64,000 nt of DNA from a virus (Duplodnaviria; Caudoviricetes): the IMG/VR virus record IMGVR_UViG_3300046615_000451, positions 19,357-83,356 of that record. One strand, given 5' to 3'. Position 1 is the first letter of the stretch, and the number at the start of each line of letters is the position of its first letter. The notes beneath the pieces were generated by a model. It was not told where the DNA came from. It was given only the letters and a program-made list of their open reading frames with translations, and did not search any database. Shown piece by piece: positions 23,571 to 29,240 of this stretch. The position numbers and the translations under genes are program-made.

Positions 23571-23594
23571 GCCCGCACTGCGGGCTATTTTTTT
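23571..23594 (+). terminator. Rho-independent terminator upstream of terS
   Basis: GCCCGCA-C-TGCGGGC then T-rich tail. Confidence 0.55.
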
Positions 23595-23665
23595 AACGTA
23601 AGGCGCAAGAAGTTGGCCGCGTTACCACGGCCGATAGCGAACATATTACGCATTAGGGATAGCAG

Positions 23666-24739
23666 ATGCCGCGCAAGCCAGAGACTGAAAAACCTACGGT
23701 GTCGAGGGATGATTTATCCCCGTCCAAGGCTCCCGCGCGCTCTCGAAAACCTGCAAAACCGCGCGCTACTAATGCCGACAAGGTGAAAAGCAGCAAAAAT
23801 CCGGCCACCACGGAAGCAAAAAAGCCCGTGAAAGCTGCTGCTAAACCCGCAGCTAAACGCAAGCCTCGCAGCGCGGCCACGATTGGAAGGACTGCGATCA
23901 AGAACCCGGTAAAGCTCACCCCTAAGGCACAGCAAGCCATTGATATCTCTGCTTTCCAGGGGCTGGACGCTCGACAGGCAAAGTTCGTGGATCTGTGGCT
24001 GGTCACCTACAACGGCGCTCAGTCCTACAGGGACGCGGGTTACAAGTGCAAGAACGATAATGTTGCGCGGGTGGGTGCTCACAAACTGCTAACTAAGGTT
24101 AAAAACCACCCTTATACGCTCGCTCGACAGGTTGAACTGTTCTCACGCACCGCCGATGTGCAAAACCAGATCGTCGCCACCTTTCACGCGGCCTCCTTTG
24201 CCGATCCGCGGGAGCTGGTCGAGTACGTGCGCCGGTGCTGCCGCTATTGCTACGGCATCGATCACAAGTTTCAGCTGCGCCCCAGTGAAATGGAGCGCCG
24301 CCGCCAGCAGTACGAGGCCGACAAAGCCGCTCTCAAGGCCGAGGGAAAGGAAATTGGTGAGTTCGATGAGCTGGGTGGTGTGGGGTACGACGGCAAGAAG
24401 TCGCCCAACTACGATTGCCCCGAGTGCGACGGCGAAGGCGAAGGCCGTGCACTGTTCAAAGACAGCTCCACCCTGTCCCCTGCCGCCCTGACGCTGTACG
24501 AGGGTGTGAAAGAGGGCAAGGACGGTACCGAAATGAAGGTCGCCAGCCAGAAAGGCTATCGCGACTCCCTGGCCAAGCTGTTCAACATGAACGTAGAGCC
24601 GGCTGTAGTGGTGAATGTGGGTATCAGCGAGGAAGAGCTTGAGAAAATCCTGGCGCTTGCCCAGGCGAACACCGAGAAGAATCGCGAGGCCATGGCCGGC
24701 CGCGCCGAAGAGCTGGCCAAGATAGGGATCGTGAATTGA
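23666..24739 (+). CDS. terS: Terminase small subunit with basic N-terminal tail and zinc-binding insert
   Basis: LDARQAKFVDLWLVTYNGAQSYRDAGY HTH; ADPRELVEYVRRCCRYC...CPEC. Confidence 0.8.
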   Translation: MPRKPETEKPTVSRDDLSPSKAPARSRKPAKPRATNADKVKSSKNPATTEAKKPVKAAAKPAAKRKPRSAATIGRTAIKNPVKLTPKAQQAIDISAFQGLDARQAKFVDLWLVTYNGAQSYRDAGYKCKNDNVARVGAHKLLTKVKNHPYTLARQVELFSRTADVQNQIVATFHAASFADPRELVEYVRRCCRYCYGIDHKFQLRPSEMERRRQQYEADKAALKAEGKEIGEFDELGGVGYDGKKSPNYDCPECDGEGEGRALFKDSSTLSPAALTLYEGVKEGKDGTEMKVASQKGYRDSLAKLFNMNVEPAVVVNVGISEEELEKILALAQANTEKNREAMAGRAEELAKIGIVN

Positions 24740-26338: not shown

Positions 26339-26922
26339 TCTTTTTGAATCGCGCTGATTTTGAGTATGCCGCCAAGGAAGCCGGGATTACCGACCTGGAG
26401 CACGACGGCGACGGTTACGCCAGCGCCCACACACAGGCGGCGTATGCGGTCTGGAAGAGCGTGGCATTCCCACTTGGGGATAAGGGTGATGCCCCATTGG
26501 TATGGGTAAACATCCGCGGTGGTAAAGCGGTTGGCCTGTCCACAACGCGCCCGAGCGGGCCTGAGTCGCCGCTATGGCCCAAGCGCCGCGCACAGGGTTG
26601 GGAGCCTTCAAGGCCGCTGCATATCAACGTGCCGGGGGTGAGCCCTGAGGTGATGGCGGTTATCCGTGAGTTACAGCGCCAGCGCCAGGAGGAAGGCTAT
26701 TCGGTTGAAAGCGATATCGAGCAGTACCAGGGCGGGGAGTTGGCGCGGGCGGCGGCGTGCTATGCGATGCAGGCGGCCGGGGTGTATCCGATGCGGTTCG
26801 CCAGCTTCTGGCCATTCAAGTCGAAGATGAAAACATGCCTGCCGGCCGAGTCGCTGACAAAGGCGGTCGCGTTGATCCTGGCCGAGGTTGAGCGCGCCAA
26901 GGCGCAAGGGTCCGCCCGATGA
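26335..26922 (+). CDS. Hypothetical phage protein
   Basis: RQRQEEGY...GELARAAACYA...WP...LTKAVALILAEVER domain common in phages. Confidence 0.6.
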   Translation: MIFLNRADFEYAAKEAGITDLEHDGDGYASAHTQAAYAVWKSVAFPLGDKGDAPLVWVNIRGGKAVGLSTTRPSGPESPLWPKRRAQGWEPSRPLHINVPGVSPEVMAVIRELQRQRQEEGYSVESDIEQYQGGELARAAACYAMQAAGVYPMRFASFWPFKSKMKTCLPAESLTKAVALILAEVERAKAQGSAR

Positions 26923-27608
26923 GCACGGCACCGCTCTACGAGGATGCTCGCTGGCCGGCGTTCATCGCTCGTTACGCCAACGACCTCTGCGCGTTTGCTG
27001 CTGATGTCCTCGGCATGGAGGTAACGCCAGCGCTCGCCCGTACCTACTGCCTCGCCTCACTTCCGGGCTGTCGTGTGTCCATCGCTACTGACATCGATCT
27101 GCATGGAGTCGACGCAATCAGCCCGATGGCGCCTATCGCGATCTGGCGCCTGCTGTGTTGCCCCGAGTCCAGAACCTTGGTGACCATTCCGTTTGGTGGT
27201 GGTCGTGCCCGCAAGCAGCAATACGCGCGTTTACTGACGTGGATGGCCGGGGGCGCCCACAGCTGGTTGCGTGCCTATATCAGTGTTGACGCTACTCAAA
27301 TCCATCTGAGGCGCGAGTATACGGGCGCAAAAATCCTGTTTCTCTGTGCCGATCATAGAAGCCCCGAGAACCTGGCTGGGTTCTTCGGTGATCACATTTG
27401 CTGGCTGATGGAAGCCGCCGAGGACATCCCTGATGCGTGTTTCAGCGTGGCACTCGCGGCGATGCGCAATCCTGGCGCCAGCATGTTGCTCACCAACAAA
27501 CCTTGGCGGGAGTCTGGATTTGCCGCCGACACGCGCGGAAGACTGAGCCGGGACCAGGGTGGATCGTGGGATGTCTGCACCCTGGAAAGCGCGCAAAGCC
27601 AGCAATAA
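26919..27608 (+). CDS. Truncated terminase large-subunit paralogue (ATPase domain only, Walker A/B degenerate)
   Basis: Colinear similarity to the N-terminal about 240 aa of 27675-29240. Confidence 0.85.
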   Translation: MSTAPLYEDARWPAFIARYANDLCAFAADVLGMEVTPALARTYCLASLPGCRVSIATDIDLHGVDAISPMAPIAIWRLLCCPESRTLVTIPFGGGRARKQQYARLLTWMAGGAHSWLRAYISVDATQIHLRREYTGAKILFLCADHRSPENLAGFFGDHICWLMEAAEDIPDACFSVALAAMRNPGASMLLTNKPWRESGFAADTRGRLSRDQGGSWDVCTLESAQSQQ

Positions 27609-27633
27609 GTGCCATCAAATCAAGCAGTAAGGT
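27593..27633 (+). promoter_or_regulatory. Putative late promoter (GCAAAG...TAAGGT) for terL
   Basis: GCAAA box with xAxxxT hexamer exactly 35 nt downstream. Confidence 0.65.
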
Positions 27634-27635
27634 GT

Positions 27636-27659
27636 AAGGGCCGGTAATACGGCCCTTTT
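27636..27659 (+). terminator. Rho-independent terminator between pseudo-terL and terL
   Basis: AAGGGCCG-GTAATA-CGGCCCTTTT. Confidence 0.7.
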
Positions 27660-27674
27660 GCGTTAAGGAATGGC

Positions 27675-29240
27675 ATGGCCAGGGCGAAGAAAGAAAAACA
27701 GTTGGTGCTCGATGCCGATCCGCGCTGGCCCGCGTTCGTCGCCCGGTATGCCTTCGAACAATACAAATTCGCCGTCGAAGTGTGCGGCATGGGTATTGTG
27801 GGCAAGCCCGTAACGCACCAGCAGAAAGAACTGTTTGATGAAGCCTCGCCCTATGGGTGCCGGGTGTCGGTGGCGTCTGGCCACGGTACCGGCAAGACTA
27901 GGAGTTTTGGCGTTATAGCGCTTTGGCACCTACTCTGCTATCGCAATTCAAACACCTACATCACCGCACCAAAGCTCAAGACCGTGCGCGAAGGTGTATG
28001 GAAGGAAATCACCACGCTCAAGGCGCAGATCGAGAAAGGCCCGCACGCCTGGATTGCGCAATACATCACCATCCAGGCCGAAAAGGTCTACATCAACACC
28101 AAGTCGGCTATCTGGTACGTCACCACCCGTACAGCACCCCGCGGCGCCCCTGAGAACCTGGCCGGTACCCACGGCGATTACCTCTTATGGATGGCGGACG
28201 AAGCCTCAGGTATCCCGGACGAAAACTTTGGCGTGATCGGTGGCGCCCTCACCGATCCGCGTAACCGCTTCATCATGGCCAGCCAGCCTACCCGTAGCAG
28301 CGGGTTCTTTCGTGACTCGCACCACAGTAAGAGCAAGCGCCAAGGCGGGGCGTGGACAAGCCTCACGTTCAGCTCCGAAGAAAGCACGTTGGTGGGTATC
28401 GAGTTCATCAAGGAAAAGCTCATCCAGTACGGTGGGCGCGATGAAATGGAGTACCAGATCAAGGTCCGGGGCATGTTCCCGACCAACTCCAGCAAGTACC
28501 TGCTCAGCCAAGCAGCCATTGAGCGCGTCATTGAAGGCCCGAACGTCATCCTGCCGGGCGAAGCCTATGGTCACCTGATCGTGGTCGACGTAGCGGCGGG
28601 CGTAGGGCGAGACAAGACCGTGGCCACGCATATGAAGGTGATCGGCAATGGCGACCGCATGAGCGCAGATCGGCGCCGGATTGAGGTGGTCGCGGTACCG
28701 GTCTACACCAACACCGAAGACTGGACACCGGTGGCGGTGAAGGTGCTGGACTACGCGGCGCAATTCTCCAACGTCACGATCATCGTCGACACCAACGGCA
28801 TGGGTAACCAGTTCCTCAAGCGGCTGATAGAGCTGTCGGGGGGCGGGATCCATGCCAAGGGCTGTCGCTGGGGTGAATTGCCGTTCAGCAACGAATACCG
28901 CAAGCGATTCCTTAACCAGCGGGCGCAGTCCACGGTCCACCTGGTCGAGGCGATCAAGGACGGTGTGGTACGCCTGTCGAGCCAGTACAAAAAGGATCTG
29001 ATCGACCAGGGCAGCCGTATTCCTTACTTCCTGGATGAGTTGGGGCGCTACCACATCGCCCGCAAGCAGGACATGGCCGCGGAGGGGCTTCCATCCCCCG
29101 ACCTTTTGGACACGCTCGCCATGGCGTTTCTGGAATCTGCGGAGTACGTGCCGGCGCAAGGCGAGGCCGTCAGCCTCAGCACAGACAGGCGCCAGGCCGC
29201 ACTTGATGCTGCGCGCGAGGCGCTGGCTGGCATCACGTAA
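27675..29240 (+). CDS. terL: Terminase large subunit (P1 PacB-like)
   Basis: Walker A SGHGTGKT, Walker B WMADEAS, RNase H-like VDVAAGVGRD...PDLLD. Confidence 0.93.
   Translation: MARAKKEKQLVLDADPRWPAFVARYAFEQYKFAVEVCGMGIVGKPVTHQQKELFDEASPYGCRVSVASGHGTGKTRSFGVIALWHLLCYRNSNTYITAPKLKTVREGVWKEITTLKAQIEKGPHAWIAQYITIQAEKVYINTKSAIWYVTTRTAPRGAPENLAGTHGDYLLWMADEASGIPDENFGVIGGALTDPRNRFIMASQPTRSSGFFRDSHHSKSKRQGGAWTSLTFSSEESTLVGIEFIKEKLIQYGGRDEMEYQIKVRGMFPTNSSKYLLSQAAIERVIEGPNVILPGEAYGHLIVVDVAAGVGRDKTVATHMKVIGNGDRMSADRRRIEVVAVPVYTNTEDWTPVAVKVLDYAAQFSNVTIIVDTNGMGNQFLKRLIELSGGGIHAKGCRWGELPFSNEYRKRFLNQRAQSTVHLVEAIKDGVVRLSSQYKKDLIDQGSRIPYFLDELGRYHIARKQDMAAEGLPSPDLLDTLAMAFLESAEYVPAQGEAVSLSTDRRQAALDAAREALAGIT

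Follow-up and report, generated by a model that had tools for sequence, protein, structure and literature searches.

A dead paralogue of the large terminase ATPase domain encoded beside terL in a P1-like Pseudomonas phage: a candidate terminase mimic

The window analysed here, a stretch of 64,000 nucleotides from the IMG/VR virus record IMGVR_UViG_3300046615_000451, carries directly upstream of its large terminase gene (terL) a second gene homologous to it. The product of this gene, P0001 (229 amino acids, aa; 26919-27608, + strand), is truly paralogous to the ATPase domain of the PacB-type large terminase subunit (TerL) encoded next to it. It is intact and under purifying selection, hence no decaying duplicate. 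The identification of P0001 as a dead TerL copy, belonging to a family that we call type I, is based on the open reading frame (ORF), BLASTP, the modelled fold, and the ratio of non-synonymous to synonymous substitution rates (dN/dS). In our judgement, P0001 is very probably a functional, non-catalytic, and dispensable mimic of TerL; the possible uses of such a mimic are weighed along with the evidence that bears on each of them.

RESULTS

P0001 derives from the TerL ATPase domain

BLASTP placed residues 9-227 of P0001 against residues 15-237 of TerL in one colinear alignment, with 34% identity and an E value of 2e-39. The first-pass annotation of the window, made from the sequence alone, had proposed this colinearity for the 229-aa ORF, and all the motifs that it quoted are present. 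P0001 ends (residue 229) where the linker of TerL to its nuclease domain starts, and the RNase H-like nuclease domain is absent. A tblastn search with P0001 against 50,697 phage records retrieved PacB-type TerLs and a paralogue from Punavirus, and nothing else; likewise, the profile built from the dead-copy family also recovers full-length TerLs. The Pfam scan of P0001 gave no family, and the sequence profile search against the PDB gave chance-level matches only.

The structure of P0001 was modelled with AlphaFold2 from 15 homologues (predicted local distance difference test, pLDDT, 72). Searched with Foldseek against the PDB, the model found as its best matches TerL ATPase domains only (Sf6 gp2, T4 gp17, and P74-26), and its matches in BFVD were viral TerLs. 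A superposition of structures had been suggested in the first-pass annotation, and VIA-align matched the modelled fold to T4 gp17 with Z 14.2 (210 residues aligned, root mean square deviation 3.5), to P74-26 TerL with Z 12.8, and to HK97 TerL with Z 11.5. In the model, P0001 has the additional strand catalytic glutamate (ASCE)/RecA-like fold of the terminase ATPases.

The nucleotide-binding and catalytic residues are replaced

In the alignment, the Walker A motif of TerL (SGHGTGKT) faces TDIDLHGVDA in P0001, and the Walker B/catalytic segment LLWMADEAS (MADEAS) faces ICWLMEAAE (LMEAAE). The replacement of Walker A by DIDLHGVD and of ADEAS by MEAAE, as well as the stop before the nuclease domain, had been read correctly in the first pass. 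The former P-loop (residues 57-69, TDIDLHGVDAISP; 27087-27125, + strand) is without GK[ST], and its length and sequence vary across the family. The remnant of Walker B (residues 159-167, HICWLMEAA; 27393-27419, + strand) corresponds to a family consensus of LLWL.EDA, against LLWMADEA in TerL. The Walker A pattern G/S-x4-GK[ST] is absent from P0001 and from all 27 family representatives, and the catalytic DE is replaced by EA in P0001 and by ED in the family consensus. In a joint alignment with 49 TerLs, the TerL-invariant positions missing in the dead family were Q50 (Q motif), S68-G69-H70-G71-G73-K74, H166, D175-E176 (now E-D), R207, G210, and F212. Since the nucleotide-binding and catalytic residues are gone across the family, the TerL-type use of ATP appears to be lost, and, judging from its sequence, P0001 cannot bind or hydrolyse ATP in the fashion of a terminase.

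The dead family keeps the fold, the core strands, the N-terminal helices, and the PE.LAG segment. In the alignment of the 27 representatives (alignment A3), the conserved elements are the N-terminal D.RWPAF.ERYA.DL.AFA.EVCG, LAP.ALW.LL, a Trp at position 116, PE.LAG, and LLWL.EDA. The N-terminal helical motif common to PacB-type TerLs (residues 9-33, D.RWPAF..RYA.DL.AFA..V.G; 26943-27017, + strand; alignments A1 and A3) is the most conserved portion of the family, with the lowest entropy among close relatives. An arms-race signature centred on the former P-loop was also considered, and rejected: site 64 is hypervariable, but so are about 12 sites in the C-terminal half.

The dead family is large and under purifying selection

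A word-indexed search identified 14 related proteins of 228-240 aa, eight of them at 77-96% identity and six at 40-44%, with many residues invariant among the 14. The profile search on 1.84 billion representatives gave 409 matches. All the full-length matches (about 450-580 aa) except one carry SGHGxGK[ST], the intein-bearing ones still having GK[ST], one half of the motif that the intein splits. The Walker-A-less matches fall into about 37 clusters of 185-310 aa, and 27 of these compose alignment A3. The family thus consists of about 27 clusters (at 50% identity) of Walker-A-less relatives of 185-270 aa, diverged to about 25% identity. The literature search gave no account of catalytically dead TerL paralogues and, for decoys in connection with Avs, incidental mentions only, and this large family, for which we found no published description, appears to be undescribed.

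The dN/dS was calculated with the Nei-Gojobori method on ten loci, and the values are those of the 14 pairs in which the synonymous rate (dS) was unsaturated. It was 0.14-0.37 for the dead copy, 0.09-0.33 for the neighbouring 195-aa gene, and 0.007-0.08 for the TerL N-domain; the purifying selection on the dead copy is about ten times laxer than that on TerL. In comparisons across the two main clades, the identity is 69% for TerL and 40% for the dead copy.

These values bear on the possibility that P0001 is the decaying remnant of a tandem duplication, functionless today. As would be expected of such a remnant, the gene is often deleted in nature and its constraint is relaxed in comparison to TerL. 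However, no frameshifts or stops were found in more than 40 sequences, the frames being intact in all the examined copies, residues remain invariant across clades that are 40% identical, and the length is conserved in ~27 clusters. Because of the dN/dS and of this Walker-A-less family, we dismiss the decaying duplicate as hardly credible, in line with the first-pass annotation, which had argued against it.

The type I duplication is old, and other dead copies arose separately

A maximum-likelihood tree was built on 89 N-domains, 27 of them from type I proteins. Among the latter, 24 form one clade (99% in the Shimodaira-Hasegawa-like approximate likelihood ratio test, SH-aLRT), and all 27 lie on one side of a weakly supported branch. 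The type I proteins branch outside all the TerLs in the sample and do not nest with that of their own phage. These sequence relationships are compatible with a single origin of the family and indicate that the duplication is old.

Other TerL copies without Walker A and nuclease domain appear, from their sequences, to have at least three separate origins. One separate clade, sister to the PacB-like TerLs, includes a 356-aa protein of Escherichia phage vB_EcoM-813R1 (L002:4989-6059), assigned to phrog_5902 ("unknown function"), which has PHGIGETS for the P-loop and NS for DE. This paralogue is found in some Punavirus phages and in about 70 P1-like plasmids (E. coli, Klebsiella, and Shigella; ~95 kb), but the P1 reference genome lacks it. 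We considered whether it could be the IS1-interrupted isaA/isaB of P1 and rejected this identification, the paralogue being simply absent from the P1 reference. P0001 matches the phrog_5902 profile partially (E 5.5e-20, positions 5-227 of 359), and the real TerL matches better (1.7e-70). Like P0001, the phrog_5902 protein is PacB-derived and lacks the P-loop lysine, DE, and the nuclease domain; unlike P0001, it is longer and is encoded after ssb, not upstream of the terminase gene, with an unrelated left neighbour. In the tree it groups with PacB-type TerLs, apart from the P0001 family, which points to a separate origin.

The dead copy has been lost repeatedly from a fixed slot

The presence of the dead copy in related elements, another check suggested at first pass, was assessed with a TerL-anchored scan of IMG/VR, in which 17 contigs had either a gene similar to P0003, the left neighbour of the dead copy, or enough upstream sequence to judge. 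The slot is fixed, yet the dead copy is present in 12/17 contigs, while in the other 5/17 the P0003-like gene adjoins terL directly. The contigs without it are L031 and L034 (the latter being the L025 contig), with a TerL 97% identical to that of the window, L032 (the L022 contig), with a TerL 87% identical, and L035 and L036, with a TerL 77% identical. No dead copy was found anywhere in the whole records behind L022 and L025 (82.8 and 82.7 kb; 97% and 96% complete, respectively).

In the window, two copies of the microhomology GCGCAA, compared with the deletion junctions in L025 and L031, lie at 26902-26907 and 27592-27597 (both + strand), exactly 690 nt apart. At the L025 and L031 junctions, the upstream gene is fused to the final few codons of the dead gene (ERNKAQSTR and ERAKAQSHQ, respectively, each followed by the stop), the outcome that recombination between the GCGCAA repeats would give. 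The two deletions look separate, because the tail kept in L025 and that kept in L031 correspond to different subtypes of the dead gene. L035 and L036 have lost just the ATPase-like body, in frame, and retain an ORF of ~70 aa (2770-2990 in each). Overall, the junction sequences suggest at least three independent clean losses, probably four. Given this repeated natural loss, P0001 is unlikely to be an essential terminase subunit.

The ~70-aa ORF of L035 and L036 comprises the first three codons of the dead gene and an extra C-terminal tail (FIELVAGKPLTP), otherwise present in P0047-type members only. This tail may be a separable module.

An accessory and fast-evolving gene in which the catalytic features are all lost and the core is retained could have been neofunctionalised: the fold would serve as a platform for binding something unrelated to terminase partners or sensors, for example a target of host takeover, and the position beside terL would merely reflect the origin by duplication. 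The survival of the C-terminal tail of some members as a small ORF after deletion of the body (L035/L036) goes in the same direction. We consider it unlikely, since the position has been held throughout divergence to about 25% identity and the TerL-like surface motifs (N-terminal helices and PE.LAG) have been kept.

The dead copy is part of the packaging gene cluster

The source record is an 83,356-bp IMG/VR virus with direct terminal repeats, rated complete, and it holds one dead copy and one TerL. Its relatives are viral contigs of ~80-95 kb and non-mobilizable Pseudomonas plasmids, e.g., P. fluorescens CP048608.1 and P. putida NZ_AP015032.1; the genome is that of a P1-like Pseudomonas phage, probably a phage-plasmid. 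The functional PacB-type TerL (521 aa; 27675-29240, + strand) has intact Walker A (SGHGTGKT) and DE, belongs to phrog_2, and has tblastn matches to pacB. The small terminase subunit, TerS (357 aa, phrog_51, Terminase_2 in relatives; 23666-24739, + strand), is encoded by the first gene of the terS-to-terL cluster. The genes follow one another, tightly packed and on the same strand, in the order helix-turn-helix protein, a gap of ~600 nt, TerS, four small ORFs, dead copy, hairpin, TerL.

The 195-aa gene P0003 (26335-26922, + strand) is always the left neighbour of the dead copy, and contigs that have lost the latter still carry it. The stop codon of P0003 and the start codon of the dead copy overlap in an ATGA (26919-26922), and the 4-nt overlap is found in most relatives too; the coupling of an intact ORF to its upstream gene, as claimed in the first pass, therefore holds and recurs. 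The order of a 195-200-aa P0003-like gene, the dead copy, and TerL is found in all the examined loci, which belong to P1-like Pseudomonas phages or phage-plasmids of ~80 kb, and also in the deepest branches (P0029 type in L028, P0045 type in L029, and P0047 type in L020/L021).

A GC hairpin, GGGCCG/CGGCCC, followed by TTTT (27638-27659, + strand), precedes the start codon of terL by about 15 nt and is conserved in position across lineages. Just 5' of it lies the -10-like hexamer TAAGGT (27628-27633, + strand), a putative element of a terL promoter, which is TAnnnT in most lineages (TAGAGT, TACAGT, or TAAGGT in relatives). The hairpin stems change compensatorily across lineages (GGGCCG/CGGCCC, GGGGCCGG/CTGGCCCC, GGGTCGG/CCGACCC, and GGCCGG/CCGGCC). 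Since the hairpin is kept where the dead gene is missing, it belongs to terL; it could be a terminator or attenuator of the terS-to-dead-copy transcript or, alternatively, a 5' stem-loop of the terL message. Of the terminator and late promoter that had been annotated before terL, the former finds its counterpart in this hairpin with its T-run, whereas the latter is limited to the weak TAAGGT and was not confirmed: the consensus scan gave no sigma-70 promoter before terL, and the P1-type late promoter (LPpac layout: 9-bp -22 box, 4 nt, -10) had no match there. Neither the 16-nt core of the hairpin (GGCCGGTAATACGGCC) nor the 13-mer upstream recurs in the window beyond what chance would give. The proposal that the dead copy is expressed earlier than TerL is unsupported: its gene comes last in the same-strand run from terS to terL, and an independent early promoter was not found.

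The regions upstream of terS and terL (23598-23634 and 27627-27655) are alike, both having GTAAGG(C/T)G, a short spacer, and a GGCCG...CGGCC hairpin. Directly before the terS copy of this layout, at 23571-23593, there is a further hairpin, strong and terminator-like, with a T7 run. The shared layout may be a common regulatory element of packaging genes; the rest of the window shows no enrichment of the motif.

The position of the gene and its conserved N terminus are also what would be expected of a modulator of packaging. The dead domain would bind a partner of the TerL N-domain (TerS, TerL, its nuclease domain, the portal, or DNA) and, as a helpful non-essential subunit, would tune pac cleavage, motor assembly, or nuclease activity. 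The slot directly 5' of terL, last in the cluster and translationally coupled to the neighbour, fits this explanation; the most constrained part of the protein is the N-terminal D.RWPAF..RYA..FA.EV.G motif common to PacB-type TerLs, and the conserved hairpin before terL could set the expression ratio of dead copy to TerL. On the other hand, the gene has undergone at least three losses in phages otherwise near-identical and near-complete, and its non-synonymous evolution is about ten times that of TerL. Furthermore, a dead subunit in a ring ATPase motor is expected to poison the motor. The co-folding of the mimic with TerS residues 90-357 gave a score of 0.00, without controls, and was counted for neither side. 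A role in packaging is doubtful, although nearly as likely as the mimicry in immune recognition discussed below.

The expected poisoning recalls a further possibility, also raised at first pass, that of a weapon against rival phages or satellites, with P0001 as a dominant-negative subunit of the competitors' terminase. A non-catalytic copy of a ring-motor subunit is carried here on temperate phage-plasmids, which meet competitors. Nevertheless, P0001 is most similar to the TerL of its own phage, so self-poisoning would come first; its gene is in the late packaging cluster, and we found no sign of lysogenic expression and no supporting observation. We regard this use as very unlikely.

Other features of the neighbouring genes

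For P0003, the Pfam, PDB, and Atlas searches gave nothing useful, and the matches in PHROG were solely to families of unknown function. Its C-terminal domain of ~90 aa recurs at the C terminus of many PHROGs of unknown function (phrog_6628, 9763, 11504, 9434, and others) with very different lengths, and P0003 evolves as fast as the dead copy. P0001 had also been considered as a small terminase; this was rejected, as P0001 has no TerS match and the real TerS is encoded upstream, at 23666-24739. TerS has an N-terminal tail of ~90 aa rich in Lys, Pro, and Ala, and a zinc-ribbon-like insertion with invariant cysteines (CCR.C.G ... CPEC.G.G), conserved in both clades.

Several near-identical TerLs (L004:4757-7051, L005:4754-7048, L007:4760-7057, L013:5757-8051, and L025:4050-6362) contain an intein of ~245 aa, with a Hint/homing-endonuclease match, inside the Walker A P-loop (GHG before it and TGKT after it, the intein running from C to HN). 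The TerL of the window (27675-29240) is intein-free, and the presence of the intein is not correlated with that of the dead copy.

DISCUSSION

A possible mimic in immune recognition

Among the uses of the mimic, the one that we tentatively put first, as a possibility that falls short of probable, is that P0001 binds, in competition with TerL, to a factor by which the TerL ATPase fold is recognised. P0001 would be made from the packaging gene cluster alongside TerL and would act by binding, as a look-alike of monomeric TerL, with a benefit that would be conditional and non-essential. Its leading target would be a host immune receptor that senses TerL (of the Avs2, Avs1/3, or Upx type), and an abundant look-alike free of ATP could fill this receptor and yet leave the ATP-bridged interface needed for activation incomplete. 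We read the gene in terms of host-virus conflict because its dispensability is conditional, its evolution is rapid but constrained, dead copies were invented recurrently, and the mimicked domain is the target of Avs2 and Upx.

The published work on these receptors gives this proposal its shape. The TerL ATPase domain alone suffices to activate EcAvs2, and at the EcAvs2 interface a bridging ATP touches the terminase-bound ATP, while Upx senses an unfolded state of the TerL ATPase core (Evans et al. 2026, Nat Commun, PMC13601566). In the same study, stand-alone TerL-like proteins dock in the same Avs2 pocket, and the authors leave their role open, "possibly anti-defence" (PMC13601566).

Four points weigh against competition for an immune sensor. 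First, vs.8, Ksap1, and Ksap2 are activators of Avs2 and not inhibitors, which means that carrying a look-alike could be costly (PMC13601566, PMC11564622); because of these published look-alikes, a simple decoy, as hypothesised at first pass, is not the default expectation. Second, the dead copy lies inside the packaging cluster and not in an anti-defence island. Third, its best-conserved segment is the N-terminal motif common with TerL, and a packaging partner shared with TerL fits equally. Finally, the variation among close relatives is spread across the C-terminal half and not gathered on one surface.

A broader version of the immune proposal is that the PacB-type dead copies and those that evolved independently in other phage lineages are natural inhibitors of terminase-sensing immunity, which would block Avs2, Avs1/3, or Upx without offering an interface competent for oligomerisation. 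We hold this generalisation to be more doubtful still. If true, this would be the first counter-defence directed at a pattern-recognition system for a core phage protein, and the recurrence of dead copies would be explained. If P0001 instead modulates packaging, it would add a new accessory subunit to the terminase of P1-like phages, which are important transducers and carriers of resistance genes.

In either case, the terminase is what the most widespread pattern-recognition receptors of bacteria (Avs1-3 and Upx) sense in a phage. To this subject the locus contributes a large homologous dead family fixed beside terL, natural isogenic-like variants without the gene, and evidence of repeated evolution, and the presence/absence polymorphism makes the purpose of TerL look-alikes readily testable.

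Comparison with TerL and with known TerL look-alikes

P0001 shares with the PacB-type TerL of its own phage the homologous sequence, the fold, the N-terminal motif, the core strands, and PE.LAG. Unlike TerL, it is without the Q motif, the P-loop, DE, His166/Arg207/Gly210, and the nuclease domain, and it is faster-evolving and dispensable.

The T4 protein vs.8 is a stand-alone homologue of the TerL ATPase which keeps both Walker A and Walker B and activates EcAvs2 on co-expression (PMC13601566). Similarly to P0001, it is encoded by a separate gene, has a TerL-ATPase-like domain only, accompanies a complete TerL, and is lineage-restricted. In contrast to P0001, it keeps the ATP site (and is predicted to hold ATP), originates from a T4-type TerL, and activates EcAvs2 (PMC13601566), whereas P0001 is dead at the ATP site, PacB-derived, and placed directly upstream of terL; this distinction of vs.8 is drawn from its published description. 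The tblastn search with P0001 on the phage records matched no T4-like phage.

KpAvs2 is triggered by the small phage proteins Ksap1 and Ksap2, the latter with weak structural similarity to the TerL ATPase domain (Bechon et al. 2024, PMC11564622). These proteins resemble P0001 in being small, non-essential, and taxon-restricted, with a TerL-ATPase-like arrangement of sheet and helices. They differ from it in that their likeness to TerL is weak, structural, and without sequence homology, while P0001 is an unmistakable sequence paralogue. P0001 joins, then, the recently recognised stand-alone TerL-ATPase-like proteins of phages, to which it adds a member that is dead, PacB-derived, fixed beside terL, and polymorphic in its presence.

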